Of a stretch of 32,000 bases of DNA, positions 1-30,872 are shown in pieces. This stretch comes from Ktedonobacterales bacterium (GTDB lineage Bacteria; Chloroflexota; Ktedonobacteria; Ktedonobacterales; JADMIN01). The stretch is taken from contig CP126532.1 in assembly GCA_030167145.1 (NCBI GenBank), forward strand, positions 1,200,001-1,232,000, written 5' to 3'. Each line of letters begins with the position of its first letter. Position 1 is the stretch's first letter. The notes under the pieces are model-generated. The model was not told where the DNA came from. It saw nothing but the letters and a program-made list of their open reading frames with translations, and ran no database searches. A program made the translations under genes and the position numbers.

Positions 1-46
1 GGAGCAATTCTCGCAACGCGAAACCCGTCCATCGCCAGAGAAGCGT

Positions 47-598
47 ATGCTCGCATTAGTGCGCGCCATGGGTATCTGCGTCAACGGCTTGCTCGAACAC
101 CATGGCATTTATGCGCGCCCCTTGCGTGGCCGGGGCGAAATCTCGCGCGAGGACGCCGCACGCTATCTGACGACCACTTGTGCGCCCTTGCTTACACGCT
201 TGCAGATTGACTTCCCACGCATGGACGAGGTGGTGCGCTTTATAGATGGGCGGCTCAACTATCAGGACGTAGAAAGCCTGCATCAGGTGGTGCGAGGACA
301 AGAATTGACGGAATGTTACTGGGACGCCGTGGGCCTCCTCTCCCAAATGCAACGCCTGCTCTTCGACCGCATTGTCGGTGACGAAGTAGGACGATCTCGC
401 GGCGGCAAGCCCTATGAAGAGGCTTGGAACGCTTATTTGCGCGATATTGATGAGGAGATCACGCGCCTGACCCACCAACGCGCAGCGGCGGCTGTGCAGG
501 CGGAACGCGCGGGCCAGCTACGGCCAGCGATGAGCGGACGAGATGGCCAGCCCTATACCTATGGAGTGGCTCAAGATGCGCAAAGGAGGTTTAGTTAG
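47..598 (+). CDS. hypothetical protein, first visible gene of the chemosensory operon (possibly 5'-truncated)
   Basis: 183-aa ORF with coding-like GC3 and no family recognised. The frame stays open back to nt 2, so the true start may lie outside the window. Its TAG (596-598) abuts the GTG start of the next gene (599), and that gene's SD AAGGAGG (583-589) lies inside this ORF, which suggests translational coupling. Confidence 0.5.
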   Translation: MLALVRAMGICVNGLLEHHGIYARPLRGRGEISREDAARYLTTTCAPLLTRLQIDFPRMDEVVRFIDGRLNYQDVESLHQVVRGQELTECYWDAVGLLSQMQRLLFDRIVGDEVGRSRGGKPYEEAWNAYLRDIDEEITRLTHQRAAAAVQAERAGQLRPAMSGRDGQPYTYGVAQDAQRRFS

Positions 599-1042
599 GT
601 GGAAGAGCCAGTTGTTTTGGTCGTGGACGATAGCCCAACCGTCCGAAAGATTGTCCAGCTTACGCTTCAGCGCGAGCGTATACGAGTTGTGACCGCCGGA
701 GATGGCCTCAGCGCATTGGCTACGGTGGCCGACGAACAACCTGATTTGATTCTGCTCGATATTATGCTGCCAAAGATGGATGGCTACAATATTTGCCAGG
801 TCGTGCGGAAGAATATGGCCTATCGTGATCTGCCGATCATCATGCTCAGCGGCAAAGATGGGCTTTTTGACAAGATGCGCGGCAAGCTTGCCGGATCAAC
901 CGAGTACATGACTAAACCGTTCGATTCAGCCGAGTTGGTGCAAACCGTCAAGCGACACCTTGATATGACCCTGGTGCGCGAACGCGCGGCGCAACGTGCG
1001 GCGCAATATCAGCGGAAGATGCAGCGCCGTTTAGCCTATTAG
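599..1042 (+). CDS. CheY-like single-domain response regulator (PilG-like) with a basic C-terminal extension
   Basis: Receiver motifs VLVVDDSPT, DLILLDIMLPKMDG and YMTKPF. GTG start 9 nt after AAGGAGG. C-terminal about 25 aa are Arg/Gln-rich (RAAQRAAQYQRKMQRRLAY). Confidence 0.88.
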   Translation: MEEPVVLVVDDSPTVRKIVQLTLQRERIRVVTAGDGLSALATVADEQPDLILLDIMLPKMDGYNICQVVRKNMAYRDLPIIMLSGKDGLFDKMRGKLAGSTEYMTKPFDSAELVQTVKRHLDMTLVRERAAQRAAQYQRKMQRRLAY

Positions 1043-1237
1043 GATAGAGTGGATAGCATATTGGCCTATGATAGTTGTATGAACTCACTCGCCTGCGTCT
1101 TATTGTTAGAGCGTGTTTTTGCGGCGTTTCACGGCATGGTGGACGCCGGTCTAGTCTAGTTCCACGGTAGCCGGTTTGGTGGGCGCACGGTTGGCAATGG
1201 CGCCAGTGGCCACTGTCGGCACAGGAGAGTTAAGAGG

Positions 1238-1603
1238 ATGCCCGCACCGAAAGTCCTGGTAGTTGATGATAGCTGGACCGATCTTACCTTGATCGCCACA
1301 CCGCTACGTGAAAGCGGCTACGACGTAATCACCGCAGTGGACGGCGATGAGGCGCTGGAGAAGGTGCAGCGTGAGCATCCCCAATGCGTATTACTCGATG
1401 TGATTCTGCCCCGCCAAAACGGATTTCAGCTCTGCCGACGCTTGAAGCAGATGGAACAGAGCCGCGATATTCCGATCATTTTGGTCAGCGCCAAGAATAC
1501 TGACCTCGACAAGCGCTGGGGATTGCAACAGGGCGCGGACATGTACATCACCAAGCCCTTCAGTCGCGAGGAATTGCTCGCCAGCGTCCGCAGCTTGATC
1601 TGA
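1238..1603 (+). CDS. CheY-like single-domain response regulator (PilH-like)
   Basis: 121 aa with VLVVDDS, VLLDVILPRQNG and YITKPF receiver motifs. GGAG lies about 10 nt upstream of the ATG. Confidence 0.88.
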   Translation: MPAPKVLVVDDSWTDLTLIATPLRESGYDVITAVDGDEALEKVQREHPQCVLLDVILPRQNGFQLCRRLKQMEQSRDIPIILVSAKNTDLDKRWGLQQGADMYITKPFSREELLASVRSLI

Positions 1604-1657
1604 TCGCCCGCGTAGGAATCACCATGAGGCTGATTCTTATTCGATCATGGAGGCCGC

Positions 1658-2377
1658 ATGAGTGATTTCCCATCCCCCTACTCACCGCTGGATTCGTCGA
1701 ATGACGAACGGAACCAGCGGCGTTCGGCTATGGCCGAAACGCTCCAGCAGGCGTTACGCAGCTTGCAGTCTGGCCAGCAGAGCGCGGGTGGAGCAGGTGG
1801 CGCGCCGCTCACCCCCGAGCAGCTCACCTTGCTTGCACAACGTGCCGGACTCTCAGTGGGCGCACCCGGAGACTCCACTCGCGGCATAGACCCCGGCCTC
1901 ATCATCCCCAGTATGAATCTCACTGGCGAGCCGCAGTACATCGTCTTCGCACTCTATAGCGTGGAGTGCGCCTTGCCAGGCAACTCGGTACAGGGCGTGG
2001 AGCGGCTCATTGAAATTACTCCCGTGCCCAATCTCGCCCCCTGGGTGCTGGGGGTCGTGCATCTTCGTGGCTCAATCTTGTCGGTCGTGGACCTTCGCAC
2101 ATTCCTGGGGTTCCCAACCCAGCCTATGACGGTGCGTTCACGTATGTTGCTCGCCACCAGTGGCGACATGATGATCGGCCTGCTGGTGGATGCGGTGACC
2201 GAAATGCGCCCGCTCAACAACGCTGACATGATGGGCAGCGAGATCAGCACCCCAGATTGGGCGATGCCCTACGCCGAACGTACCCTGAATATCCAGGGGC
2301 GCACAGTCGCCGTGCTGGACCCCGAACGTCTGCTCTTTTCTGAGAAAATGCACCGCTATCGCGCCGAGTTTGGTTGA
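1658..2377 (+). CDS. CheW-like coupling protein (PilI-like) with a disordered N-terminal extension of about 85 aa
   Basis: CheW-domain signature YIVFALYSVECALPGNSVQGVERL...PWVLGVVHLRGSILSVVDLRTFLGF. GGAGG lies 4 nt before the ATG. Confidence 0.85.
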   Translation: MSDFPSPYSPLDSSNDERNQRRSAMAETLQQALRSLQSGQQSAGGAGGAPLTPEQLTLLAQRAGLSVGAPGDSTRGIDPGLIIPSMNLTGEPQYIVFALYSVECALPGNSVQGVERLIEITPVPNLAPWVLGVVHLRGSILSVVDLRTFLGFPTQPMTVRSRMLLATSGDMMIGLLVDAVTEMRPLNNADMMGSEISTPDWAMPYAERTLNIQGRTVAVLDPERLLFSEKMHRYRAEFG

Positions 2378-2710
2378 GCGCCACGCCCGGTTCTCGCCGC
2401 TTTCAGGTGCGGCTTGTATGACCTCAGTCCCACTACACTCAGCATTCCCGTGCATTCCGTGATACTCTTGGGTGGGTACACAGTATGCTATAGGTACTGT
2501 GCGCTCATCCGCAGCGGTGGCAGGTGGCGTTTCCTGGCCTGAAGTGGCGGGGCGGTATACTGGATGGTAGCGGAAGCAGCTCGCGGAAGCATATCCATGT
2601 AGGCGCCAGCGACCGCACGGGTTCGGTATAGCACTCATTTTTCTGCTGGCTGGCGCGGCGGAAGTGATGGAGCATCGCGGGTCGTGCATTGGGGAGGACT
2701 CATACTACCT

Positions 2711-4582: not shown

Positions 4583-4651
4583 TACCGCTGCTTACATGCT
4601 CATGGCAAGGTAGTATGTACCGGTTCGCCGGCAACAATGGGTGCGTAAACT

Positions 4652-18083: not shown

Positions 18084-19172
18084 CTATTCCCATTTGAAGA
18101 GGCGGGTGGCGATGAGGGTGCAGGCGATGGCCCAGCCCGCCAGCACAGCGAGGTCAATCCACATGGGGAAGTCGGGGACGCTGCCAATGGAGACCTGCCG
18201 CACGGCGTCCGCAAGGTAGGTCAGCGGCATGGCGCGGACGATGGGCGCGAGGAAGGCGGGCAGGAAGGCCAGCGGGAAGAAGATGCCGCTGAGGAACATC
18301 ATCGGGAAGTTGACGGCGGAGGAGATGCCGCTGGCGGATTCGACGGAGCGGGCGATGGCGGCGATGAGGTAGCCGATGGCGACGAAGGTGAGCGCGCCGA
18401 GCAGGACGAGTCCGGCCAGAGCGAGCATGTTGCCCTGAATCTGGACGTTGAACGCGGCGACGCTGAGGCCAACGATGAGCGCAGCCTGGACGAAGCCGAT
18501 GGTGAGACGGAAAAGGATCTGGCCGATCAGCAGTTGCCAGCGGGGAAGCGGGGTGGCGCCGAGGCGGCGCAGCACGCCCTCTTGCCGAAGCTGGACGAGC
18601 GGCGTGGCGGTGGCAAAGAGGCCAAGCTGCATGAGCGACATGGCCAGAATGCCCGGCATGAGGAAGTCTATGGAGCGCAGATTACGCGCGGTGACGCTAA
18701 TGGTGTTGAGGGCCAGTGGTGGGACCGCCTGGATGTGGGCCGCGTTGAACTCGCTCAGCACCTGCTGGACGATGCTCTGCTCGACGCCAGCATCGGTCTG
18801 ATTTTTGGAGGGGTCGTTGTACATCTGCACGGTAGCTGTGTGACCTGCTTGCACGGCGTCGCTGAGTCCTGCGGGGATGACGATGACCATGTCGCGGCGG
18901 CCTTGCCTGAGGTTGCTCAGTTCGTCACTTTCCGCGCCGGTCTTGACGGTGAATACCTTGAGGCTCTTAAAGGTGGATTCGAGTTGAGCGCCTACAGGAC
19001 CGTTATCTTCGTTGACGAGGCCGACGGTATAGTTCACGGAGCCACCGCCGGAGAAGATGGCGCCGAAGAGAATGATGAAGAGAATGGGGAACGCCAGCGT
19101 CCAGAACATGGCGGCGCGGTCGCGGATGAATTCCTTCATGTTGGCGCGGTAGAGGCTAAGAATGGTGGACAT
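18084..19172 (-). CDS. ABC-2 type transporter permease
   Basis: Six-TM ABC-2 pattern starting MSTILSLYRANMKEFIRDRAAMFWTLAFPILF. ATG 19172 has GGGAG 11 nt upstream. An in-frame ATG at 19235 (the ORF-track start) adds 21 non-conserved-looking residues and lacks an SD. Confidence 0.8.
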   Translation of the reverse strand: MSTILSLYRANMKEFIRDRAAMFWTLAFPILFIILFGAIFSGGGSVNYTVGLVNEDNGPVGAQLESTFKSLKVFTVKTGAESDELSNLRQGRRDMVIVIPAGLSDAVQAGHTATVQMYNDPSKNQTDAGVEQSIVQQVLSEFNAAHIQAVPPLALNTISVTARNLRSIDFLMPGILAMSLMQLGLFATATPLVQLRQEGVLRRLGATPLPRWQLLIGQILFRLTIGFVQAALIVGLSVAAFNVQIQGNMLALAGLVLLGALTFVAIGYLIAAIARSVESASGISSAVNFPMMFLSGIFFPLAFLPAFLAPIVRAMPLTYLADAVRQVSIGSVPDFPMWIDLAVLAGWAIACTLIATRLFKWE

Positions 19173-19252
19173 GGTGAAATGCACTCCCTGTGTATGGTGA
19201 CGGATAGACGAGCCGTCGGGACGACGGCGCGACATAGGTGTATGGTTGGCCG

Positions 19253-20179
19253 TTAGTCGCGCAGGGCGCGGCCAGTGAGCTTGAGGAAGACATCTTCGAG
19301 GGTGGCGTTGTGGATGTTGAGGTTGCGGAGTGTGCCACCGCCCGCAGGCTCGCGGTCGAGCAGCGCGGCCATGGTGCGGGGCACGTCGTTGCTGTAGAGC
19401 GTGATGGTGCCGTCTTCAGCGGCGGCGTGTGAGACGCCGGGGATGGTCTGATAGCCATCTACGTCGCCCGAACCCTGGAAGGAGATGGCAATCTCGTTGA
19501 AATAACGCTGCACCAGTTCAGCGGGCGAGCCGATCTCGATGATGTGGCCGTGGTCTACGATGGCGACGCGGTCGCAGAGTTGTTCGGCTTCTTCCATATA
19601 GTGCGTGGTGAGCAGGATGGTCTTGCCCTGCTGCTTGAGGCCGAGGACGGTATCCCAAAGCTGGCGGCGGGCCTGTGGGTCCATGCCGGTGGTCGGCTCG
19701 TCGAGGAAGACGATTTCGGGATCGTTGACGAGCGCAAGTGCGACACTGAGGCGCTGTTTCTGGCCGCCAGAAAGCTGCTTGCTACGGGTGTCTTTTTTCT
19801 CTTCCAGGTCTACGATACGGATCAGTTCGTCGGTGGTCAGCGTTTTGCGACCGGGGTAGAACTTGTGGAAGAGATCAAGGATTTCAGTGACAGTCAGGCG
19901 TGGGTAGAGCGAGGTGGTCTGAAGTTGGATGCCGATGCGCTCTTTGATGGCTTTGGCTTCGCGGGGCAGCTTGTAGCCCAGAATAGCGACGGAGCCGGAA
20001 TCAGCGGTGCGCAGCCCTTCGATCATCTCGATAGTGGTGGATTTGCCTGCGCCATTGGGGCCGAGCATGCCGAAGACTTCGCCCTGACTCACGGTGAGGC
20101 TGATACCGTCAACAGCTTTGGTCTGGCCGTAATATTTGCGGAGGTTTTCCGCGATGATGACGTTGTGTTCGCTCCCCAT
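19253..20179 (-). CDS. ABC transporter ATP-binding protein (DrrA/ABC-2 subfamily)
   Basis: Walker A GPNGAGKST, signature LSGGQKQRLSVA, Walker B IVFLDEPTTGMD and H-loop TTHYMEEA. Confidence 0.92.
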   Translation of the reverse strand: MGSEHNVIIAENLRKYYGQTKAVDGISLTVSQGEVFGMLGPNGAGKSTTIEMIEGLRTADSGSVAILGYKLPREAKAIKERIGIQLQTTSLYPRLTVTEILDLFHKFYPGRKTLTTDELIRIVDLEEKKDTRSKQLSGGQKQRLSVALALVNDPEIVFLDEPTTGMDPQARRQLWDTVLGLKQQGKTILLTTHYMEEAEQLCDRVAIVDHGHIIEIGSPAELVQRYFNEIAISFQGSGDVDGYQTIPGVSHAAAEDGTITLYSNDVPRTMAALLDREPAGGGTLRNLNIHNATLEDVFLKLTGRALRD

Positions 20180-20487
20180 GCTTCAATTGCTCCTATGCTT
20201 GTGCTGACAAGTGGTATTGACGCCGTAGAGGGTTGGTCTGCATGAAAGGGTAGCATCAGCGGGCAATGCACGGTAAGTATCGTTGGTCATTATCTTTTCT
20301 ACGATGGGTGGTGACGAAAGTCATCCGGCGCATGCGCACCGTCATGCTCTTGGTCATGAGCGTCCGCAGCACGGGTTGTCGGCGTCTCTGAGCCACGGAT
20401 GGCCGGAGCACACTTGCGGAGCATGCATGCCCAGGATACATATGCACGCGGGCGAAAATGCCGCTGATGACGCCCACGTTGGGTGGG

Positions 20488-21153
20488 CTATGTCCCTTGT
20501 TTGACGGAGCCGATGCCGCTGATGTTTTGCTTGACGCTGGCGGGATTGCCGTAATAGGTGACGTTGCCTGCGCCGCTGACGGTGGCATCGAGGGTGCCGC
20601 TGACAGTGACGGTGGCTTTGCCGACGCCGCTGAGGTGGACAGTGGCGTTCTGGCTGGTAAGATCGCGGGCGGAGTAGGAGCCAGCACCGGAGAGTGAGAC
20701 ATCCTGGCTTTGGGTAGTACCGGAGACGCTGATGTTGCCTGCGCCGCTCAGATTAATGGTGAGGGCGGTAGCGGTGATGCCGGTGGCAGTGACGTTGCCC
20801 GCGCCAGAGATGTCGAGAGCGTCAAGTGTTTTGACGGTGAGGTTGAAGATGACTGGTTTGGTGGGCTGAAAGGTCGTGCCCGATTGATAGCTAATCTCTA
20901 GCTTGTTATTGACAACCTGGGTGGTGATTAGTGGGAGGATGTTGTCTTCGGCGGTGATCGAAAGCGACTCGACGCCAGTCTGGGCGATGTTGAGCGCGCC
21001 AGCCCCGGAGAGCGCGACACCGCTGAAGCCGCTGACGTTGCGCGTTTCGGTCTTGACATTGCCAGAGCCGACGACGTTGCCGCAGGCGGCGAGCGAGACG
21101 GTGGCGCTGGCGAGCACAGCCAGCAGGACATAGGCGAATAGCTTGCGTGTCAT
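20488..21153 (-). CDS. lipoprotein with a DUF2807 / head-GIN beta-helix domain
   Basis: Signal peptide plus lipobox (LASATVSLAAC). Then GSGNVKTETRNVSGFSGVAL...DNILPLITTQVVNNKLEI and repeated SGAGN(V/I) rungs. ATG 21153 is preceded by AAGGAG. The TTG at 21189 (ORF track) is unlikely. Confidence 0.78.
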   Translation of the reverse strand: MTRKLFAYVLLAVLASATVSLAACGNVVGSGNVKTETRNVSGFSGVALSGAGALNIAQTGVESLSITAEDNILPLITTQVVNNKLEISYQSGTTFQPTKPVIFNLTVKTLDALDISGAGNVTATGITATALTINLSGAGNISVSGTTQSQDVSLSGAGSYSARDLTSQNATVHLSGVGKATVTVSGTLDATVSGAGNVTYYGNPASVKQNISGIGSVKQGT

Positions 21154-21269
21154 AGGGGTCGGATCTCCTTCGCGCCGGAGCGGTATCAAACGCGCTCTCT
21201 GTAGAATGCCAGCAGATAGGTTCCGCTACGTTCCGTGCTACGAGCAGGAGTGCGAAAAGGCTCACGCTA

Positions 21270-21770
21270 CTAGCGCAATGGGAACGCGGCGCCAGTGGAG
21301 CGCAGGTACTTCCAATAGAGACAGGCACGGGTCGCCAGAATCATGCCAAGCGAAAGGGTGAGCAGCGCAGCCGTGAGGGGGCCGGCGACGACGTTGGGGG
21401 CGCCAGCGGTGAGCAGGTGCGCGAGGATCTTCGCCACGAAAGCCACGAGCCAGAAGACGAGGTTGAAGACCGAAGCTTTGAGGATGACCTGGCCGGTCGC
21501 GGTATCCAGATGGAGGCGCATCGCCGCTCCGCGTGCCAGGCCAAGCACGCCACCGGCGAGAAGGCCCAGGAGGAGCGCGAGCAGCGTGCCACCACCTGCG
21601 AGCAGATCCTGCGCCAGGCTGGCATAGCTTAGGACGAGCATGACGACCGGCATGATCCAGAGCGCGGCGGGCTTCATCTGGCGGTCGCGGAGCTGGCGCA
21701 CGATGATCCAGACGATGAGCGCTACACCGATGAGATAGACGGTGAGGGTTTGTTGGGATGGTACAGGCAT
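21270..21770 (-). CDS. CcdC-like (DUF1453) membrane protein
   Basis: ATG 21770 is preceded by AAAGGAG. Pattern IIVRQLRDRQMKPAALWIMPVV, GQVILKASVFNLVFWLV and ATRACLYWKYL parallels B. subtilis CcdC as I recall it. The ORF-track N-terminal 46 aa are likely not translated. Confidence 0.65.
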   Translation of the reverse strand: MPVPSQQTLTVYLIGVALIVWIIVRQLRDRQMKPAALWIMPVVMLVLSYASLAQDLLAGGGTLLALLLGLLAGGVLGLARGAAMRLHLDTATGQVILKASVFNLVFWLVAFVAKILAHLLTAGAPNVVAGPLTAALLTLSLGMILATRACLYWKYLRSTGAAFPLR

Positions 21771-21871
21771 GGTAGTGATTTCTCCTTTGCAGGTTGGGGG
21801 AATGAATGTATCCATCGTGTCGCTGAAGGGAAGTTTAGCCGTGGACGGGCGCGAGGGCATCGCCCGCTGGT

Positions 21872-21911
21872 TTGATGTGGGGTTGATTTTGTGGGGGTGG
21901 AGGATCAACCC
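21872..21911. promoter_or_regulatory. cluster of TTGAT-containing repeats (candidate response-regulator operator)
   Basis: Direct repeats TTGAT-GTGGGG (21872-21882) and TTGAT-ttt-GTGGGGG (21883-21897). Plus an 8-bp inverted repeat GGGTTGAT (21880-21887) / ATCAACCC (21904-21911). They lie 100-140 nt upstream of the CcdC-like gene. Confidence 0.35.
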
Positions 21912-21940
21912 AGAGGTGGAGATTGGCGTGGGGGAACGGG

Positions 21941-22609
21941 CTAGGCGAGGCCGCGCTGACGAGCGAGGACGAGGGCGTGGGCGCGGTCGCGTGCACCAAG
22001 CTTGGCGAAGATGTGGTTGATGTGGGTTTTGACAGTTGCTTCGCTGACGGTGAGATCGGCGGCGATCTCGCTGTTGGCGCGCCCCTGGGCCATGAGGCGC
22101 AGCACATCGCGCTCGCGCTCGGTGAGGCCGGAGGTGTCTTCAGGTTGCTTTTTGGCGAATTCGTGTGTGGTGGATGGCAGACTGGCAAGCAGTTGCGCGG
22201 CGCTCTGGGCTTGCAAGAGCACCTGCCCACGTGCGACGCCGCGGACCGCCGCGACGATTTCTTCGGCGCTGGAATCTTTGAGGAGATAGCCCGCCGCGCC
22301 TGCGCGCAGCCCGTCGACGACCAGTTCAGGGGTATCGTAGGTGGTGAGCAAAACGACGCGGGTATCGGGGACGGCGCAGCAGATACGCTCGGTGGCGGCG
22401 ATGCCGTCGAGCAGGGGCATGCGGATATCCATCAGTAGCACGTCGGGGTGTTCCAGCGTAGCCAGGGATACGGCGGCTTCACCATCGGCGGCTTCACCAA
22501 CGACGATCAGGTCGGGAGCGGCTTCGAGGATGATACGTAGCCCTTCGCGTAGGAGCCGCTGGTCATCGGCCAGGGCGACACGGACGCGTGCATCGTTCGC
22601 ATCGTTCAT
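21941..22609 (-). CDS. NarL/FixJ-family response regulator (receiver plus LuxR-type HTH)
   Basis: [27 protein letters not shown], then [44 protein letters not shown]. Its ATG overlaps the kinase stop (ATGA at 22606-22609). Confidence 0.92.
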
Positions 22610-23886
22610 GCGGCGCCCACTTTCTCTGGTGGCGACATCATAGACAGCGGCAGGCAGATGGTGACAGCGAATCCGCCCTCCGCGCGGGGACCGGCGACGA
22701 CGGATCCGCCAAGCGCCGTGGCGCGCTCACGCATGCCGCGCAGGCCATTGCCCGCACTGGCGGGTGGGATATCCAGCGAACACTGGCCATCGTCGCGGAC
22801 GGTGAGCGTGACCGATTCGCGCTGCCAGCGCAGTTCAGCGCGCACATGGTGGGCAGCGCCGTGGCGGTAGGCGTTGGTAAGGGTCTCGCGCAGTGCAAAG
22901 GCGAGCGCCTCGGTCTGTTTTTCGGTGGTGGCGTGCGGTTCGCCGATTTCCTCTAAGGCGCAGCTCACGCCGGTTCGCACACTGAAACGGTCAGCCAGCG
23001 ACGAGAGTTGCGAGCGCAGGTTCGCTGACGCATCGGTAGCTGGTGGCGCTTCGCGGAGGAGGCCGACGACCTGACGGCTTTCGGCAAGACTTTCTTTGAG
23101 TACCAGCGCCATGTCGTCGAGCATGGTGGCGGCGCGCTCTGGCTGCTGGCGCACAATCTGGCGGGCGGCTTGCACCTGAACGGAGAGCGTGGTGAGGGAG
23201 TGGGCCAGCACATCATGGATGTCGCGGGCGATACGGGCGCGCTCGCGGGCGGTGGCTAGCTCGCCGGTGCGGGCCATCTCGGCGCGCAGTTGCTCCTGGG
23301 TGGCACGCAGGCGCGCGATGACGAGGGAGCGGGCGCGCAGCGACCCGGCGATGGCGATAATAGCGCCCCAGGTTTCCAGCGTTCCCAGGAGGAAACCGGT
23401 ATTCGGCAGTGCGCTGGTGCGCAATAGTGCATGAAGTCCGTGGGTCCAGATGAGCGCCAACGTGATGGCAACGACGTAGGCGATAGCCCAGCGGATGGGC
23501 AGCCGTAGAATGGCGAGCGCGCCCACGGCATAGAGAATCACATCGCCCCAATTCGAGTCAATGAATTGATACACTATGAGGCCGAGGACGAGCGCTAGCG
23601 CGAGACTGGCGAGCGAGAGTGGCAATCGCTGCGTCGAACGCGCAAGCACAACTAAGCTCAATCCAGCAAGGAAGATCAGCATGGCAAGGATATTGTGACC
23701 GGTGGGCTGACGGGTCATGTTGATGATCGTCTGGATGATGAAGATACCGACCAACACTAATCCGAGCGCCATCACATAGTGCGCTGAGACAGACGCAAGC
23801 ATTTGTGGTTTGTCGCTGTTAGGCTGCGGCTGGGCGATGGTGCGCGGCGCATCGGAGATAGGTGCCACATTCTCTTCGCTTGCCAA
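22606..23886 (-). CDS. HisKA_3-family sensor histidine kinase, multi-TM intramembrane-sensing type
   Basis: H-box RIARDIHDVLAHSLTTLSVQ, HATPase LRETLTNAYRHG and DDGQ...GNGLRGMRERA. Five to six TM helices with no large external loop. The likely start is TTG 23886, 6 nt after AAAGGAGG (GGAGG 23893-23897). The ORF-track ATG 24162 would overlap the upstream disrupted gene. Confidence 0.85.
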   Translation of the reverse strand: MASEENVAPISDAPRTIAQPQPNSDKPQMLASVSAHYVMALGLVLVGIFIIQTIINMTRQPTGHNILAMLIFLAGLSLVVLARSTQRLPLSLASLALALVLGLIVYQFIDSNWGDVILYAVGALAILRLPIRWAIAYVVAITLALIWTHGLHALLRTSALPNTGFLLGTLETWGAIIAIAGSLRARSLVIARLRATQEQLRAEMARTGELATARERARIARDIHDVLAHSLTTLSVQVQAARQIVRQQPERAATMLDDMALVLKESLAESRQVVGLLREAPPATDASANLRSQLSSLADRFSVRTGVSCALEEIGEPHATTEKQTEALAFALRETLTNAYRHGAAHHVRAELRWQRESVTLTVRDDGQCSLDIPPASAGNGLRGMRERATALGGSVVAGPRAEGGFAVTICLPLSMMSPPEKVGAA

Positions 23887-24077
23887 TGATAGCCTCCTTT
23901 CTCGCGCTGGTGATGCGGGGACGCAACGCATACTCAGTAAATTGTAGCATGTGGATGGGTCAACAGGATGGAGGCGACAGATCGAACGTCGAGCAAAGGG
24001 AAAGCCAGGTCGGAGTTGGGAAGGACTCGTGTTTTCCGCTCTGGCCTGGCCTCTCTTGTGGGTTATGTGGCTTGTGA

Positions 24078-25049
24078 CTACTGCTGTTGTTGGCGGCGCG
24101 CGCCTCTGAGGAGCGTCCAGGCGTCTATCAGGATGACGATGATAAAGGCTATCGCCGTACATAGTAGGCCGTAGTACACGACATTGTTGATGCTGGGCGG
24201 TGCGCTGCGGGTGGGGTCGCTGGCCAGCACCACCTATTCACCAGCACGCAGCAGGTAGAGCAGAATGCCCAGCCCGGCAATATCCGTCGCCAGGCGTACC
24301 GCCCGGCGGAAGCGCAGCCACTCTGGGAGAACGAGGTTGACCACCGCCTGGGCGATGCTCACCGCGAGAATGAGCAGCGTGGGCAGGGCGATGTATTGCC
24401 AGACCGGCCCAAGCTGGTAGGCGTTCAGGGCTGGCCCGAAGAGCAGCGACGGTCGGTCGAATGCGAGCCACAGCCAGACGACGATCCCGACGATCTGCGC
24501 GATAGATTCCAGCCGGGGCACGCGCAGAGCGTTTCGTACAGCGGGTTGCCGTACAGGCGAACGGGGCACGCTCCACTACATGGTGGGCAGTTAGCGTTCC
24601 GCCGCCGCGAAGATGCCGGTGATCACGGCGAACTGAACGACAATCTGGAACGCGACTGAGGTCATTGCGTCACCGACGGTGCGCGGATTGCCGCTCACGG
24701 CGAACGCGACGAGCACCAGGGCGTATATGGCAAGCGAAATGCCCCTGATTACCAACAGCACGCGCACATAAAACGGGAACAGCACTGTGCCGATGAGTTC
24801 GCGACCGAAGACAACGCGCCCCTAGCTGGTCTGATAGCGGCTCGCGACGAGCATGGGGTGGCCATACCGCTGAAGGATAGTTATCTGTTCAGCTTCATCG
24901 AGCGGCCTGCCGAGTTCGGCTTCGTGGTCATCTGTTTGCGCTTGAAGATTCTCCAACAATTCGTTGATAATGTCGTCCTGCTGCGCCTATGGCGTGTTCT
25001 TGGGCAGGTACGTTCTGATGGCGTTCATGTACTGGTCAAGTACGTCCAC
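24078..25049 (-). pseudogene. PadR-associated membrane protein gene interrupted by five in-frame stop codons, with no frameshift
   Basis: GTG 25049 lies 6 nt after GGAGGA (25056-25061). A single frame runs to TAG 24078-24080. Internal stops are TAG 24987-24989, TAG 24822-24824, TAA 24591-24593, TAG 24576-24578 and TAG 24234-24236. The segments encode a helical N-terminal prefix (VDVLDQYMNAIRTYLPK..QQDDIINEL..AELGRPL..YGHPMLVASRY) and several TM helices. Confidence 0.75.
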
Positions 25050-25076
25050 AACGGTTCCTCCACGAGTTGATCCACT

Positions 25077-25433
25077 TCAGTTCTCAACGCTGGATGTACT
25101 GGGCGCACGGCCAATGATACGGTTGAGTGACGCATCCATGGAGCGCCATTCGTCGAGCAGTTGGGAGAGGATCACCTCACCCTCAGCCGAGAGATGATAG
25201 AATCGCTTGTTGCGTTTGTTTTCTTCGCGCCAGGCGCTCACGAGCAGACCCTGGCTCTCCAGCCGCCGCAACAGCGGATAAAGTGTGTTTTCTTCTATGT
25301 CCATGCCTTGGTCGGCCAGCGCCTTGCGCAGTGCATAGCCGTAATACTCTTCGCGCAACTGGGCCAGCACCGCGACGATCAGGCTGCCGCGCCGCAGTTC
25401 CAGGCGGAGGTTGTCCAGCAGCTCATCGTTCAT
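25077..25433 (-). CDS. PadR-family transcriptional regulator
   Basis: 118 aa: LRRGSLIVAVLAQLREEYYGYALRKAL...IEENTLYPLLRRLESQGLLVSAWREENKRNKRFYHLSAEG. ATG 25433 is preceded by GAGGA (25437-25441). The ORF-track 195-aa version is over-extended. Confidence 0.9.
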   Translation of the reverse strand: MNDELLDNLRLELRRGSLIVAVLAQLREEYYGYALRKALADQGMDIEENTLYPLLRRLESQGLLVSAWREENKRNKRFYHLSAEGEVILSQLLDEWRSMDASLNRIIGRAPSTSSVEN

Positions 25434-25443
25434 GTGTCCTCTG

Positions 25444-25472
25444 TACTGTGTGGCAAACAGTATGTTGCACAT
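25444..25472. promoter_or_regulatory. two adjacent palindromes just upstream of the padR SD (candidate PadR operator)
   Basis: TACTGT (25444-25449), 7-nt spacer, ACAGTA (25457-25462). This abuts ATGT-tgc-ACAT (25462-25472). Confidence 0.4.
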
Positions 25473-25681
25473 AGTGTATGGCCAACAGGAAATTTTGTTA
25501 AGGGTGATGTTCGCGCCACGAGGTTGGCTGGATTGAACGACGTAGATGAAGGGGAATAGAGGAGATAGCCGACGGTGTGGGTGGCGAGCGCGGACTATGA
25601 TCTGAATGGGAGCGGGATGCTCCGAACTGAGGACTTGCGCGGGATGCGCGCCAGGGGACAACAAGGGAAGGGAGCTGGGTT

Positions 25682-27022
25682 ATGGCGACCGTAACAGAGA
25701 TGTCCCGACAACCTCGGGTGGTGATTGTGGGCGGGGGCTTTGGTGGGCTGCGCGCGGCGCGGGCGCTAGGCAAGGCGCCGGTGCGGGTGACACTGATTGA
25801 CCGCAGGAATCATCACGTGTTTCAACCATTGCTCTATCAGGTGGCGACGGCGGCGCTCTCGCCCGCCGACATCAGCGCGCCAATCCGGCATGTGGTGCGC
25901 AAGCAACGCAATACAGAGGTGCTGTTGGCAGAGGTGACGAGTGTGGATGTGGAGCGGCGGGAAGTTCACATCCACGATCTGGCAGGCGGACTGGACCGGT
26001 CGGTGCCCTACGAGTATCTGGTGCTGGCGACGGGGGCTGACCAGAGCTACTTTGGGCATGAGGAATGGGAGCAGTTTGCGCCGGGACTGAAGTCGCTGGA
26101 GGATGCGACGGCGCTGCGGCGTCATATTCTGCTGGCGTTCGAGGCAGCGGAAAATCTGATGACGACGGACCCGGAGGCAGCGCGGACGCTGCTGACGTTC
26201 GTGGTGGTGGGGGCGGGGCCGACGGGCGTGGAGATGGCGGGCGAGATCGCGGAGGTGGCGCGCAAGGCGCTGATCGCGGACTTCCGGCATATCAATCCGG
26301 CGTCGGCGCGGATCGTGCTGGTGGAGGCGATGCCGCACATCCTGGCGGCATACCCTGAAGCGCTGGCGGCACAGGCGACAGCGAAGCTGAAGCGGTTGGG
26401 AGTGGAGGTGCGCACGGACACGCGAGTGGAGGAAGTGGATGCAGATGGGGTGACGATCAACGGGGAAAGGTTGACGGCGAAGACCGTGATCTGGGCGGCG
26501 GGAGTGACGGCGTCGCCAGCGGGGCGCTGGCTGGGCGCGGAGACGGATCGCGCGGGGCGGGTAATGGTGCGCGACGACCTGACGGTTCCAGGCCACCCCG
26601 AAATATTCGTGATCGGAGATACGGCGCATACGATATGGCGCGGCAAACAGTTGCCGGGTTTCGCGCCGGTGGCATTGCAGCAGGGCGCGTATGTGGCGAA
26701 GGTGATTCGCGAGCGCGTGGCGGGGAAGGAGGAGCATGCGCCATTCAGCTATTTCGACAAGGGTACGCTCTCAACGGTAGGGCGGCTGTATGCCATTGCG
26801 GATATTCGCGGGCTGAAGCTAGCGGGGTTCGTGGCGTGGGTGCTGTGGGTGGTAGTGCATATCTTCTTCCTGATCGGGTTCCGCAATCGCTTCGTGGTGA
26901 TGTTCCAGTGGGCGTGGGCGTTCGTGACGTATCAGCGCGGCGCGCGACTGATTACCAATGTGGGTGAAGCACAAACAGAAATAGCGCGACGTGAGTCGGT
27001 GGGCAGTGGCTGGCGGAGGTGA
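25682..27022 (+). CDS. ndh: type II NADH dehydrogenase (NDH-2), FAD-dependent
   Basis: RVVIVGGGFGGL...TLIDRRNHHVFQPLLYQVATA, second Rossmann motif VVVGAGPTGVEMAGE, GDTA, and a C-terminal amphipathic membrane anchor. GGAG lies 7 nt before the ATG. Confidence 0.9.
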   Translation: MATVTEMSRQPRVVIVGGGFGGLRAARALGKAPVRVTLIDRRNHHVFQPLLYQVATAALSPADISAPIRHVVRKQRNTEVLLAEVTSVDVERREVHIHDLAGGLDRSVPYEYLVLATGADQSYFGHEEWEQFAPGLKSLEDATALRRHILLAFEAAENLMTTDPEAARTLLTFVVVGAGPTGVEMAGEIAEVARKALIADFRHINPASARIVLVEAMPHILAAYPEALAAQATAKLKRLGVEVRTDTRVEEVDADGVTINGERLTAKTVIWAAGVTASPAGRWLGAETDRAGRVMVRDDLTVPGHPEIFVIGDTAHTIWRGKQLPGFAPVALQQGAYVAKVIRERVAGKEEHAPFSYFDKGTLSTVGRLYAIADIRGLKLAGFVAWVLWVVVHIFFLIGFRNRFVVMFQWAWAFVTYQRGARLITNVGEAQTEIARRESVGSGWRR

Positions 27023-27042
27023 GCGGCGTCATTTGAGGGAAT

Positions 27043-27068
27043 GGGGGCAGACAGGAATGTCCGCCCCC
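27043..27068. repeat. hairpin repeat, family 2, copy 1 (between convergent ndh and usp)
   Basis: Core GGGGCAGACAGGAATGTCCGCCCC (27044-27067) is identical to 30817-30840. It forms a 9-bp stem with one A-C mismatch and a 6-nt loop. This copy has an extra G-C closing pair. Confidence 0.85.
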
Positions 27069-27124
27069 GTTCGTTGTGCATAGCATGCCAGACATGTGCT
27101 AGCTGGACAGATGCCGGATAGATG

Positions 27125-28051
27125 CTAGATCGTAGATTCGGGGTTTTCTGTGTCCGTTTCGGCTGGCTGCGACTGCGCAGCGGGCGAGTGCAGCGGCGGG
27201 ATGATGACCAGAGGGGTCTCGGCCTGGCGGAGCAGTTCGGTGGCGACACTGCCCAGGAGGAGGCGAGCGACGCGCCCGCGTCCGCGCGTAGTCATCACGA
27301 CAAGACTGCCGTGGTGTTCGGCGGCGAGATGGGCCAGTTCGGTCGCGGGGTCGCCGCTGAGTAGCATGCTTTCGACGGTGAGTTCAGTGGTGGTGGCGAT
27401 ACGCCGCCGCAGATCATGCAGGTAGTGACGGGCATCGCGGGCGTCATCTTCTTGGGTGTGGATTTCGATGGGATAGGGGATACCCGTGCCGACGATTGGC
27501 GCGGGCGAAATGGCACGCACGAGCAGCAGCAACTGCCCGTATGCGCGGGCGAGCGCCTGGGCCATGGGCAGGGCACGCTCGGCCTCTTTGCTGCCGTCGA
27601 GCGGGACGATCACTTCGGCGGTAGGTTTGGTGAGCAGGTCATCAAAGGCCGTACCGGGAAGTTGCTGGGGCCAGATAAGCACTGGTACGGTGGCTTGCCC
27701 AATAATGCGCGCGGTCACACTGGGATGCCGCAATGATTGCAGGATGCTGTGATGCTGAGGGGAAATGACGAGCAAGTCGGCATTGGATGCGAGGGCCGCG
27801 TCGGCAAGCTTTTCGGCTGGGTGGCCGAATTTCATATGGCTTTCGGCGGATAGACCCGCTGCACGGAGCGCCTCTACCCGGCTGTGCAAATTGGCGCTGA
27901 TCTCCATTTCGCCCTGCGGGGGTGCGTCTTCTGGCGAGACGTGTACGAGGATGAGTTGGGCGTGCTCGCGTGCTGCCAGGGCGGTGGCTGCGCTAAACGC
28001 GCCTTCAATGCGTCCAGATCCGTCGTCTGCGAAGAGTATGCGTTTGAACAT
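27125..28051 (-). CDS. universal stress protein, tandem UspA domains
   Basis: MFKRILFADDGSG...LILVHV and a second repeat VIVPLDGS...GSLVVMTTRGRGRVARLLLGSVATELL. ATG 28051 lies 6 nt after GGGAGGA. The ORF-track start 28129 is less likely. Confidence 0.85.
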   Translation of the reverse strand: MFKRILFADDGSGRIEGAFSAATALAAREHAQLILVHVSPEDAPPQGEMEISANLHSRVEALRAAGLSAESHMKFGHPAEKLADAALASNADLLVISPQHHSILQSLRHPSVTARIIGQATVPVLIWPQQLPGTAFDDLLTKPTAEVIVPLDGSKEAERALPMAQALARAYGQLLLLVRAISPAPIVGTGIPYPIEIHTQEDDARDARHYLHDLRRRIATTTELTVESMLLSGDPATELAHLAAEHHGSLVVMTTRGRGRVARLLLGSVATELLRQAETPLVIIPPLHSPAAQSQPAETDTENPESTI

Positions 28052-28308
28052 GATTCGTCCTCCCTGGTCGTTCGAAATCGCTGCCATTTCGCGCCGGAAG
28101 GAGGAAGCAACATACCTCGTATCCAGCATGCTAAGCCTAGCGCCAGGAGGTCACAGAAATATCTCGCCCAGGGGGCGGGCGCTCACAAAGCGGTCACGAG
28201 GCTCGGCGGCATGGCTAGCAGCAGGTGGGCGGGCAATCCGCCGCCTACGCAGCGCTATACTGCCGCAAGCGTCGTGCCGAAGTGGATACTGTGTCGGACA
28301 CGGTTTGG

Positions 28309-28797
28309 CTATGGGGTGAGGGTGTAGGTGTAGAAGTGGTCGTCGCGCTTCCAGCCAGCGGACTCGTAGAGCGCCTGAGCGCTGAGGTTATCGAGGGCAG
28401 TTTGCAAGGATAGTTCGGCGGCGCCGGTGTCGCGCGCGAGGATGCGGGCACGCTCTAGCAGGGCGCGGCCAACGCCGTAGCGGCGGCAGGCTGGGGTAAT
28501 AAAGAGGTCATAGAGAATCCAGACGGGACGCAAGGCGAGTGAGCCGAAGGAGGGGTAGAGCTGGGTGAAGCCGGCAGCGATTTCGCCGTCGGATTGCGGG
28601 AGCAAGGCCAGGAAGATGACCGATTCGTTGCGCTCAATGCGTGCGGCAAGATACGCGCGGGCGGCATCGAGGTCGGCGGGCAGGCCGTAGAACTGGCGAT
28701 AAGCGTCGAAGAGCGGGGCGATGGCATCGAGATATGCCGCCGTCACCTGGATGATGCGCGGTGGGACCGCAGGCGGGGGTGTGTCGCTGAATGGCAT
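28309..28797 (-). CDS. GNAT-family N-acetyltransferase
   Basis: Acetyl-CoA binding motif LFITPACRRYGVGRALLERA and a YESAGW tail. GAGG lies 5 nt before the ATG. Confidence 0.85.
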   Translation of the reverse strand: MPFSDTPPPAVPPRIIQVTAAYLDAIAPLFDAYRQFYGLPADLDAARAYLAARIERNESVIFLALLPQSDGEIAAGFTQLYPSFGSLALRPVWILYDLFITPACRRYGVGRALLERARILARDTGAAELSLQTALDNLSAQALYESAGWKRDDHFYTYTLTP

Positions 28798-28815
28798 CGG
28801 CGCCTCACTGCTCTG

Positions 28816-29205
28816 CTAAGCGCGGCCTTTGGCTTCGGCTTCGGCTTGATGCTCAATGTCGTAGCGTGCTTCGGGCACCCGCCGCAGCCGTGCGAGCGGA
28901 ATGGGTTTGCCGCAGCGCTCGCAGAGGCCATAGGCGCCGGTATCGAACTTGGCGAGGGCATGGGTGACGGCGACCAGTTGGGCGCGCATGTCGGCTTCTA
29001 CCGCGCGCTCGGTGTCCTGTGCTTGCATGTCTACACTTTGCTCGCCGGAGTCTTCGGGGGCATCGGTGCTGGGTTCGTCTTCGGGTGGGGTGTTGGCGCC
29101 TTCAGCGGTGCGCAGCGCGCCGATCTGCTGCTGGAGGTGGGTGCGTTTTGCCTCAAGCTGGGCGCGAAGCTCCGCCAGTTCCGCTGTTGAGAGGTGATTG
29201 CTCAT
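28816..29205 (-). CDS. DksA/TraR-family zinc-finger protein
   Basis: Coiled-coil N-terminus (LRAQLEAKRTHLQQQI), then ALAKFDTGAYGLCERCGKPIPLARL. Only one CxxC pair is visible. ATG 29205 is preceded by GAAGGAA. Confidence 0.75.
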   Translation of the reverse strand: MSNHLSTAELAELRAQLEAKRTHLQQQIGALRTAEGANTPPEDEPSTDAPEDSGEQSVDMQAQDTERAVEADMRAQLVAVTHALAKFDTGAYGLCERCGKPIPLARLRRVPEARYDIEHQAEAEAKGRA

Positions 29206-29244
29206 CTTCGCATTCCTTCTTTCGCTGCCGTGCTGCGCCTGCGC

Positions 29245-29274
29245 TACCATATAACAATAGTATCACCTATGGTA
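29245..29274. promoter_or_regulatory. AT-rich inverted repeat upstream of the DksA/TraR-like gene
   Basis: TACCATA (29245-29251), 16-nt spacer, TATGGTA (29268-29274). On the minus strand the spacer carries an extended -10-like TGTTATATG. Confidence 0.3.
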
Positions 29275-29339
29275 CGACAACATGGCCAGGGGGAGTTTCC
29301 ACCTGACCATGTGCGATATGTTGCGAAACGGCGAGCCGC

Positions 29340-29999
29340 TTAGTTGGTGAAGATGCGGAAGATGTTGCGACCCTTGTCGTCTTCTCCGCCTTGCTGCTGG
29401 CCGCCCGCGCCTTGCTGCTGAGCAGCGCCACCCTGATAGGCCGCGCCGCCGTTGAAGTTGCCACGATTCACGCTAGGCACCGGAGCGGTGGGGCCATCAT
29501 CAGGCCGCGCGGGGGCGCGGTTGCCGAGCCAGTCGGGCACAGCGCCACCGGACGCGGCAGGCTTGCCACTGCCGCCGGCAGGTGATGAGCTGGCGATCTG
29601 GTTGTGGTCAATCCAGTCGTAGGCGCCACCGAGGGCGTGCTCACACCAGGTCGAGTAGTCTTTCGGGGCGAGGCCCGTGCGCTCGAAGTGGTCGAGGCGC
29701 CGCATGGTAAGCAGCAGCCAATCTTCTCCCTGTTCGACCATGCGGTCGAGCAAGTCTACCCCGGTGACGCCGCTTTGTTGCAAGCGCTCGATAGCCTGCA
29801 ACTCGGCGGGCGTGGGGCAGAATGATGCTTCTTTGGCGTCATTCTCACGCAGCTCCGCGCGGAGACCAGCCATAATTTCGTCGAGCTGGCGGGTCACGCG
29901 GTCTACATACCATGCCATGTAGCTATCGCTGAGCTGCTGCATGGCGTCGAGCGGAATCCGCTCGTAGAGCTTTGTGACTGCCGTTGGATCGGAAGCCAT
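29340..29999 (-). CDS. hypothetical protein with a Gly/Gln/Asn-rich C-terminal tail
   Basis: ORF of about 219 aa (ATG 29999, or GTG 30005). Structured-looking N-terminal 135 aa, then SSSPAGGSGKPAASGG...NFNGGAAYQGGAAQQQGAGGQQQGGEDDKGRNIFRIFTN. No family recognised. Confidence 0.6.
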   Translation of the reverse strand: MASDPTAVTKLYERIPLDAMQQLSDSYMAWYVDRVTRQLDEIMAGLRAELRENDAKEASFCPTPAELQAIERLQQSGVTGVDLLDRMVEQGEDWLLLTMRRLDHFERTGLAPKDYSTWCEHALGGAYDWIDHNQIASSSPAGGSGKPAASGGAVPDWLGNRAPARPDDGPTAPVPSVNRGNFNGGAAYQGGAAQQQGAGGQQQGGEDDKGRNIFRIFTN

Positions 30000-30026
30000 T
30001 CCCACACACCCTTCTCGTCGTCCAGA

Positions 30027-30545
30027 TTAGTCCGTATCCGTGGCGTGCTGGCGTTGCCACCAGTCGCCAACTGAGCCAGAGCGGGGCGCCTCACCCGTGA
30101 CGGGCGCCTGAGTCGCCTTGGACTCGGCCTCTTCCCTGGCACGCGAAAGTTCGCGCATCTGGTCCAGGGGATCAGAGGGGATGTTTTCCGCCCGCGCCAG
30201 TAGGCTCGCGACCACCGCCGTATCGGCAGCCTGCGCCGCCGCAACGGGAGCGGGGGTGGCGCTGGCTTTAGCGGTCGCGGGCTTACCCGCGGGCCGAAGT
30301 CGGTCCAAGTCTGGATCCAGTTTCGGCATAGCTGCCTTAATCACGTCAATGTCACTCAGCTTGTGGCCCTGCTGTGTGTAGTTAAGGAGGGCCGCAATGA
30401 TGGGGTTCTCCAGGGGAGGGAGCGCGGTGGGATGGGCTGGAGCCATCTTCTGCACCCGGACCCGTTCCTGCTCGTAGGTGTTAATCTGATCGCGCAGGCG
30501 GCGTCCGATCTCCTGGTGATGCAACCACTGTCTGTACTTGCCCAT
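30027..30545 (-). CDS. hypothetical protein
   Basis: 172-aa ORF with GGAG 7 nt before the ATG. Helical N-terminus, Ala/Pro-rich middle, acidic C-terminus. It stops 27 nt before the next ORF, which suggests an operon. No family recognised. Confidence 0.6.
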   Translation of the reverse strand: MGKYRQWLHHQEIGRRLRDQINTYEQERVRVQKMAPAHPTALPPLENPIIAALLNYTQQGHKLSDIDVIKAAMPKLDPDLDRLRPAGKPATAKASATPAPVAAAQAADTAVVASLLARAENIPSDPLDQMRELSRAREEAESKATQAPVTGEAPRSGSVGDWWQRQHATDTD

Positions 30546-30676
30546 TAGTTACTCCGCTGTCTGTGGGAGGGAGTGTTGTTTCACCCCGAACTCGTCACCG
30601 ACCCGGGAGCATCCCACCACCCTCACTGCCACGGCCGGCCTGCGCGTTGCGGACCCTGCCGAGCTATGACTGGGCT

Positions 30677-30705
30677 AGTATAGCATAGGCGAACAGGGCG
30701 TACAA
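30677..30705 (-). promoter_or_regulatory. sigma70-type promoter candidate for the 30545 operon
   Basis: Minus strand: TTGTAC (30705-30700), 17-nt spacer, TATACT (30682-30677). It predicts a leader of about 125 nt. Confidence 0.5.
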
Positions 30706-30747
30706 TCATCAGCTCCGCATGGGCCATTATGGGCTATTGGAAGCGCG

Positions 30748-30775
30748 GTGCTCCGGCCATCAATGGCCGGAGCAC
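30748..30775. terminator. perfect 28-nt palindrome / strong hairpin downstream of the M16 peptidase gene
   Basis: GTGCTCCGGCCAT (30748-30760), ca, ATGGCCGGAGCAC (30763-30775). No U-tract. Confidence 0.5.
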
Positions 30776-30816
30776 GGACGCGAAGGCATGAATGTCATGG
30801 GAGATTCCGTGCGGCA

Positions 30817-30840
30817 GGGGCAGACAGGAATGTCCGCCCC
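30817..30840. repeat. hairpin repeat, family 2, copy 2
   Basis: GGGGCAGACAGGAATGTCCGCCCC, identical to 27044-27067 and in the same orientation. It lies 33 nt downstream of the M16 peptidase stop on the minus strand. Confidence 0.85.
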
Positions 30841-30872
30841 ACCACAGGATGACCAGAGCGCACGGCGCGCTC

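Follow-up and report, generated by a model that had tools for sequence, protein, structure and literature searches.

A Probable Recently Inactivated, Nonsense-Rich Pseudogene of a HAAS-PadR Membrane Sensor in Ktedonobacterales

Results and Discussion

The frame that follows padR on the minus strand of the window (that is, the whole stretch of 32,000 nucleotides that was analysed, from a 5.07 Mb Ktedonobacterales metagenome-assembled genome with NCBI locus tags OJF49_) is, with good confidence, an ordinary pseudogene of a HAAS-PadR membrane sensor that was inactivated recently. This reading of decay is drawn from the disabling stops, which stand against sense codons in the close relatives L004 and L012 and in the wider family, and from the raised number of non-synonymous changes on its branch. 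The case corresponds to a young, nonsense-rich and otherwise ordinary pseudogene. The nonsense-only pseudogenisation considered by the first-pass annotation survives in this modified form, since the stops are accompanied by missense decay and by an in-frame deletion.

The Interrupted Frame and Its Gene Family

The frame extends from 25049 to 24078 over 324 codons, with five internal stops (four TAG and one TAA) and no frameshift, and its terminal stop is the TAG at 24080-24078. The padR stop, TGA 25079-25077, is followed by a 27-nt spacer and then by the GTG start of the pseudogene (25049-25047, minus strand), in front of which GGAGGA (25061-25056) lies at a distance of six bases. The coordinates given in the first-pass annotation for the frame, the spacer, the GGAGGA, the GTG and all of the stops were exact. 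The window corresponds to positions 1,200,001-1,232,000 of the JGI contig Ga0494333_323 (metagenome 3300045419). In the JGI gene calls, where alternative start codons are given their literal residue, the pseudogene is cut into pieces of 64, 95 and 51 aa. The features of the locus are as follows.

24078..25049, minus strand: HAAS-domain multi-TM membrane sensor, pseudogene; full-length homologues of 330-345 aa; GTG where the relatives start with ATG
25077..25433, minus strand: padR, intact PadR-family winged-helix regulator (Pfam PadR, E = 1.6e-15; WIG58374.1)
25473..25501, minus strand: TTAACA-17-TACACT, upstream of padR and promoter-like by match to the consensus only
21941..23886, minus strand: LiaS/LiaR-like two-component pair, intact, directly downstream of the pseudogene; HisKA_3 kinase at 22606-23886 (WIG58369.1) and REC-GerE regulator at 21941-22609
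18084..21770, minus strand: rest of the Lia-like envelope-stress neighbourhood, intact; DUF1453, DUF2807 (Toastrack), ABC ATPase and ABC-2 permease

A search of a collection of 5.8 billion proteins yielded 119 homologues with lengths of 320-350 aa, the best of which shares 64% identity at 100% query coverage. Each of the five stops falls on a sense column of the homologue alignment, which demonstrates that the continuity of the frame, claimed originally from translation of the pieces, is real. The named homologues are mainly from Ktedonobacterales MAGs, and most of them have a precomputed match to PF22564 (HAAS). The HAAS domain comprises three helices and carries a conserved GxP motif; it is always encoded beside a gene for a free-standing PadR wHTH, and fusions to multi-TM regions are frequent (mSystems 2024, PMC11237479). 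The first-pass annotation had described a membrane protein partner of PadR with a helical N-terminal prefix, and that prefix most probably corresponds to HAAS. In the pseudogene the GxP motif takes the form GHP at residues 63-65, Gly63 and Pro65 being invariant in all 29 aligned sequences, the pseudogene included. A hydropathy scan displayed about six TM-like segments downstream of residue 86.

The Pfam cut-off for HAAS is 27 bits, and the pseudogene remains below this threshold, at 22.0 bits with the stops masked and 23.6 bits when repaired. The open sister allele, L004, is also below the cut-off with 23.5 bits, and the full-length homologue P0004 (62% identity) is above it with 33.4 bits. 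Membership of the pseudogene in the HAAS family is therefore argued from its full-length homology to members that pass the cut-off, such as P0004. In addition, the stop-masked N-terminus gave a sub-threshold match to the NCBIfam model 'permease prefix domain 1'. The pairing of padR with a HAAS gene recurs on the contigs L002, L004-L008 and L012. Judged from its sequence, the gene would represent the membrane-bound sensor in a signalling dyad of the HAAS-PadR type.

The other genes of the neighbourhood are undamaged. Approximately 45 other gene calls over 49 kb (record 1,191,238-1,240,545) are all intact, and the DUF2807 protein of the Lia-like region falls under Toastrack (PMC11237479). No further stop-interrupted gene was detected among these ~45 neighbours. 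When ORFs were re-called with TAG, TAA or TGA read as sense, a few longer frames appeared, and all were explained. The region 2..1603 consists of three adjacent genes (the C-terminus of a PatA_N protein and two response regulators), with TAG 596-598 directly preceding the GTG start of a response regulator. The region 29202..30794 comprises two genes, and the minus-strand run at 1645..2634 is an antisense shadow of cheW. The first-pass annotation had recommended a whole-genome scan for other nonsense-only interrupted genes; over this 49 kb none was seen.

The Five Stops and the Accompanying Lesions

The closest relative, L004, is a forest-soil contig of 1,555 bp (ENA ERZ1760238) that was found via a PadR search. 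Its PadR is 94% identical to that of the window, and its downstream ORF is open for 252 codons, up to the end of the contig. The contig L012 (Logan SRR32609002) matches L004 without a difference over their 369 shared nt, and the intact allele, which appears in two datasets besides that of L004, is thus independently attested. With L005/L006 as the outgroup, changes could be polarised over 249 aligned codons. The lesions, all on the minus strand, are listed below.

24987..24989, minus strand: stop 1, TAG, codon 21; AAG (Lys) in L004 and L012, CGG in the outgroup, Q, E or R in the family; located in a variable HAAS loop
24822..24824, minus strand: stop 2, TAG, codon 76; CAG in L004, L012 and the outgroup, Gln in at least 90% of the family; C>T
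24591..24593, minus strand: stop 3, TAA, codon 153; TAT (Tyr) in L004 and the outgroup, mostly Tyr in the family; T>A transversion
24576..24578, minus strand: stop 4, TAG, codon 158; CAG (Gln) in L004, variable column in the family (E, Q, R, T, P)
24234..24236, minus strand: stop 5, TAG, codon 272; Trp invariant in 28 of 28 homologues, TGG>TAG (G>A) inferred, beyond the end of the L004 contig
24474..24485, minus strand: loss of 9 nt, in frame, within a Val-codon run; IVVW here against IVVVVVW in L004, in both nucleotide and protein alignments
24393..24395, minus strand: codon 219, TAC (Tyr); CAG (Gln) in L004 and the outgroup, Gln in at least 80% of the family
24327..24329, minus strand: codon 241, CTC (Leu); CGG (Arg) in the relatives, at least 90% conserved; non-conservative and confined to the pseudogene branch

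Alignment to orthologues, which had been proposed as a check, places K, Q, Y, Q and W at the five sites. The outgroup confirms the ancestral residue at stops 2 and 3 only and differs from L004 at stops 1 and 4. It can be observed that the five stops do not form the uniform set of deamination-type transitions described at first, as stop 3 arose by TAT>TAA (T>A) and stop 1 probably by AAG>TAG. The initial statement that the frame carries no indel holds as regards frameshifts but not as regards the deletion in the Val run, which stands out both against the closest relative and against the whole family. The replacement Q219Y (CAG>TAC) takes two substitutions, which in one of their two possible orders pass via TAG; changes of this type have been highlighted by Belinky et al. 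(PMC7918605). Moreover, the start codon changed from ATG to GTG on the pseudogene branch.

Polarised Changes in Comparison With L004

Over the 249 codons, the pseudogene is separated from L004 by 49 synonymous and 22 missense codon changes and by 4 nonsense ones, in addition to the one 9-nt in-frame deletion. Synonymous changes were polarised evenly, with 14 on each branch. By comparison, 13 missense changes (including the ATG>GTG start) were assigned to the pseudogene branch versus 5 to the L004 branch, and the nonsense changes were divided 4 versus 0. When missense and nonsense changes are combined and the start codon is left aside, the ratio becomes 16 versus 5 (binomial P = 0.013); for missense alone, likewise without the start codon, it is 12 versus 5, which is marginal (P = 0.07). 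At columns that are at least 80% conserved, the pseudogene branch acquired S32L, R42H, L116F, Q219Y and R241L, whereas only E43A arose on the L004 branch (5 versus 1). The impression that heavy missense decay is lacking was therefore overstated, several of the 13 changes being located at conserved columns. No acceleration is displayed by padR itself, for which 2 lineage-specific changes fell on the pseudogene branch and 3 on that of L004.

The pairwise values between the pseudogene and L004 are dS 0.344, dN 0.051 and ω 0.148. A low ω at this dS implies that constraint persisted through most of the time since the two lineages split and that inactivation is consequently recent, which also explains why the signal of relaxed constraint is modest. 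By our estimate, approximately one fifth of the pseudogene branch was neutral, corresponding to ~16 non-synonymous substitutions out of a gene-wide total of ~28. On this branch C>T/G>A changes account for 24 of 40, and GC>AT changes exceed AT>GC changes by 27 to 5; on the L004 branch, C>T/G>A changes account for 12 of 28. The GC3 of the pseudogene, 0.759, is undisturbed and lies within the range of its neighbours (0.62-0.84).

Comparison with more distant homologues gives a different picture. The pseudogene is 62-66% identical to the deep lineages, which are 64-68% identical among themselves, and neither Tajima relative-rate tests nor conserved-column counts against the deep homologues revealed acceleration, the rate tests being insensitive at such depth. 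Seen against these homologues alone, the excess of stops seemed extreme, and a reading without decay, obtained from them, was superseded by the comparison with L004. Other copies of the locus were also sought. A locus scan of metagenome contigs produced only one match, of 35% identity, and a scan of genome contigs none; a cluster look-up of the neighbouring proteins returned no sister-strain copies. A partial match of 70% identity, P0093, was considered as a second stop-interrupted copy; it proved to be a homologue with a frameshift, and further genes on its contig are split as well.

How Unusual Is the Number of Stops

All single-base changes of the reconstructed ancestor were enumerated, and nonsense changes amounted to 3.8-8.5% of missense changes, depending on the spectrum. 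With the spectrum of the branch itself, 6.2% of non-synonymous changes are nonsense, and it is the GC>AT-biased spectrum that raises the yield of stops to about 6%. For the 16-21 non-synonymous changes estimated on the pseudogene branch, the observed stops are ~4-6 times the neutral expectation, in agreement with the earlier claim that they are over-represented relative to other damage. The probability of at least four stops among 12-20 non-synonymous changes is 0.005-0.03. Monte Carlo simulation over the whole gene with the branch spectrum gave probabilities of at least five stops of 0.004, 0.018 and 0.078 for 28, 40 and 60 neutral substitutions, respectively; if the first inactivating change is taken as given, the probability of at least four stops is 0.02-0.2. 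At P ~0.004-0.08, the anomaly is weaker than was claimed. A several-fold excess of this kind is notable, and within reach of chance for a locus that was chosen because it looked odd.

The absence of frameshifts can be considered in the same way. In mutation-accumulation studies the ratio of indels to substitutions is ~0.1, at which about two to three indels would be expected. One was seen, with no frameshift, an outcome that appears mildly lucky. The single indel stays in frame because it sits in a triplet repeat.

Alternative Explanations

An error of sequencing or consensus, with sense codons in the true sequence, would be conceivable as the source is a metagenome-assembled contig. A Logan contig produced by a different assembler (run SRR22113990; 10,821 bp) is, however, 100% identical to window positions 20027-30847 without a mismatch or gap, spans the whole gene with all five stops, and gives the same fragment calls. 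The four CDS accessions between the kinase WIG58369.1 and PadR WIG58374.1 in the NCBI deposit are consistent with the same fragmentation, and five stop-only substitution errors in one gene beside ~45 clean neighbours do not correspond to any error pattern. Contigs with typical errors display frameshifts instead, as is the case for L002. The artefact raised in the first-pass annotation is accordingly very improbable. Equally improbable is targeted or clustered cytosine deamination, whether by a toxin deaminase or by a RIP-, APOBEC- or DddA-like process. C>T or G>A changes created three or four of the five stops, and they make up a larger part of the pseudogene branch than of its sister, as given above. 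Nevertheless, this origin is contradicted by the T>A change at stop 3, to which A>T at stop 1 is added if Lys is ancestral, as well as by normal GC and GC3 and by the lack of a common motif around the mutated bases. Under deamination, missense and silent changes should also outnumber stops by ~15 to one, and the branch carries only ~40 polarised changes. The small difference in spectrum between the branches is that expected of relaxed selection under the universal GC>AT bias. A Dcm-type 5mC hotspot (CCAGG to CTAGG) was also considered and found to fit the ancestral context of stop 2 only.

The possibility was also weighed that expression persists, if only under some conditions, because the stops are read through or suppressed by a tRNA, so that frameshifts were purged while nonsense was tolerated. 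The intact frame, the normal GC3 and the low overall ω are in line with it; near-cognate decoding might restore Gln or Tyr at several sites, and bacterial in-frame stops subject to purifying selection are on record (PMC7918605). On the other hand, the yield of five serial readthrough events multiplies to a negligible level, and the aligned residues K, Q, Y, Q and W are not a single residue. At each of the four stop positions that L004 covers, it carries a sense codon, and the conserved positions S32, Q219 and R241 are damaged too in the pseudogene. Among 24 neighbouring genes, the terminators are 14 TAG, 4 TAA and 6 TGA, TAG being the commonest. Since TAG ends 14 of these 24 genes, there is no recoding, and the earlier statement that TAG and TAA act as true terminators, a genome-wide change of code being unlikely, is borne out. 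Within the 32 kb window, tRNA-Val(CAC) is the sole tRNA and no suppressor tRNA was found, nor did Rfam give a match beyond the tRNA family. Readthrough or split expression, as first suggested, is therefore regarded as quite unlikely. Somewhat less remote, although still unlikely, is the idea that the excess of stops was selected. Under such a scenario a first stop (e.g., at W272 or Y153) would have left a truncated product of putative harm, for instance a misfolded piece of membrane protein or a HAAS domain locking PadR, and further nonsense changes upstream, each removing more of it, would then have been favoured successively. The ~4-6-fold excess, the distribution of the stops along the gene at the boundaries of the HAAS and TM segments, and a padR that is itself intact and constrained are all in its favour. 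Frameshifts would do equally well, though, and there are none; the chance probability reaches 0.08-0.2. A combined proposal, in which the stops were either selected stepwise to silence a harmful fragment or gate the full-length protein via a suppressor tRNA (e.g., of a stop-recoding phage), is as doubtful as readthrough; if it were true, the gated full-length protein might be membrane-active.

Proposed Course of Inactivation and Its Meaning

Recent inactivation of an ordinary pseudogene is thus the preferred reading, and the course of events may be outlined as follows. In the intact form, the N-terminal HAAS domain is proposed to communicate with the PadR repressor encoded next to it and would be joined to about six TM helices. 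Maintenance of the gene would have ceased in this Ktedonobacterales lineage, the loss plausibly being tolerated through redundancy with the adjoining intact LiaRS-like system and the Toastrack/ABC module. Subsequently, GC>AT-biased point mutations would have introduced the five nonsense codons, approximately eight extra missense changes that include conserved residues, and the ATG>GTG start, together with the 9-nt deletion, probably of slippage type. Translation is predicted to end at codon 21, so that no functional protein would be formed.

The case is one of a HAAS-PadR membrane sensor lost from a lineage of Ktedonobacterales in which the adjacent LiaRS-like system persists, and in itself it is of little importance. 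What it offers chiefly is a lesson of method. Judged by distant homologues (62-66% identity), the gene appeared highly anomalous, and it became ordinary after polarisation with a close relative (dS 0.34). Furthermore, a worked estimate is provided for a GC-rich gene under GC>AT bias, in which stops represent ~6% of non-synonymous changes.

Comparison With Known Systems

The resemblance to the HAAS-PadR dyad is seen in the probable N-terminal HAAS domain with its GxP motif, in the multi-TM fusion, in the position immediately downstream of a standalone padR, and in Lia-like surroundings that comprise a HisKA_3 kinase, a REC-GerE regulator, a DUF2807 Toastrack protein and an ABC transporter. The present copy differs in that it is inactivated by five nonsense codons and in its HAAS score of 22-23.6 bits, below the Pfam cut-off. 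With stop reassignment or suppression (code 15 phages, pyrrolysine, suppressor tRNAs) the gene shares several in-frame TAGs in a frame that is otherwise intact. It departs from those systems in that TAG ends most of the neighbouring genes, one of the stops is TAA, four ancestral amino acids are involved, the stops are not conserved in relatives, and the sequence examined contains no suppressor tRNA. There is agreement with ordinary bacterial pseudogenes (reviewed in PMC11078800, surveyed in PMC7918605), which are likewise single-copy and point-mutated, with intact close relatives, a raised lineage dN and GC>AT-biased changes; here stops are more numerous and frameshifts fewer than is typical, as the nonsense codons number five, the single deletion is in frame and the reading frame is nowhere shifted.

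Substitutions and annotation in the interrupted sensor gene

On the lineage of the window since its split from a close relative with an intact HAAS gene, two nucleotides have changed within the same codon at three codons of the pseudogene:

24393-24395, codon 219, CAG to TAC
24932-24934, codon 39, ATG to ACA
24327-24329, codon 241, CGG to CTC

Adjacent-base doublets account for two of the three. Such double changes could stem from multi-nucleotide mutation events or from nothing more than relaxed constraint. JGI's annotation also has a small gene on the strand opposite the pseudogene's 5' end:

24858-25070, plus strand, 70-aa gene (JGI call)

A Pfam search with this product gave no match, and the call is most likely spurious, arising because the real gene is fragmented.

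Related strains and a second split HAAS locus

A contig from another sequencing run (SRR25158444) represents a sister strain, with about 97.7% identity to window 29670-31226, and an identical response regulator is present on a contig from a third run (SRR19962773). A further PadR-HAAS locus was found at 5133-6636 of L002 (ENA ERZ25039458 contig_67160), where a frameshift splits the HAAS gene into 128 and 211 aa. Nearby genes are likewise split, for example OpuAC (140 and 129 aa). These splits are due either to sequencing errors of the indel type or to decay of that genome. The damage there is of the frameshift type, whereas that of the window pseudogene consists of substitutions only.

Genomic surroundings

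To the left of the window, record 1,191,238-1,195,216 (L013 1-3979) has the appearance of the border of an integrated mobile element, with the following genes beside smpB:

within L013 1-3979, large serine recombinase (Resolvase/Recombinase/Zn_ribbon_recom)
within L013 1-3979, M78 peptidase and HTH repressor pair (ImmA/IrrE-like)

About 8.6-9.9 kb to the right of the window lies a probable restriction-modification pair:

L009 659-1956, BglII-like endonuclease and MT-A70 methyltransferase

This pair was weighed as a source of methylation-linked CAG to TAG hotspots and rejected. The start of the window itself (1-9076) is occupied by a chemotaxis-like signalling cluster:

ends 598, PatA_N protein (460 aa), C-terminus in window
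599-1042, response regulator, single-domain
1238-1603, response regulator, single-domain
1658-2377, CheW
about 2711-4582, MCP
4652-9076, hybrid CheA (1474 aa), domains Hpt (two), CheW and REC

By chance, three consecutive genes of this cluster share one reading frame, and the TAG at 596-598 directly adjoins the following GTG start.

The module beside the dead sensor

Directly downstream of the dead HAAS sensor, an intact module is located:

18084-23886, minus strand, Lia-like module: HisKA_3 kinase, NarL-type regulator, DUF1453, Toastrack (DUF2807) protein and ABC transporter

At this locus a classical two-component system therefore neighbours the HAAS-PadR dyad. In the literature, the dyad has been proposed to take the place of a two-component system; here, by contrast with such replacement, the two adjoin.
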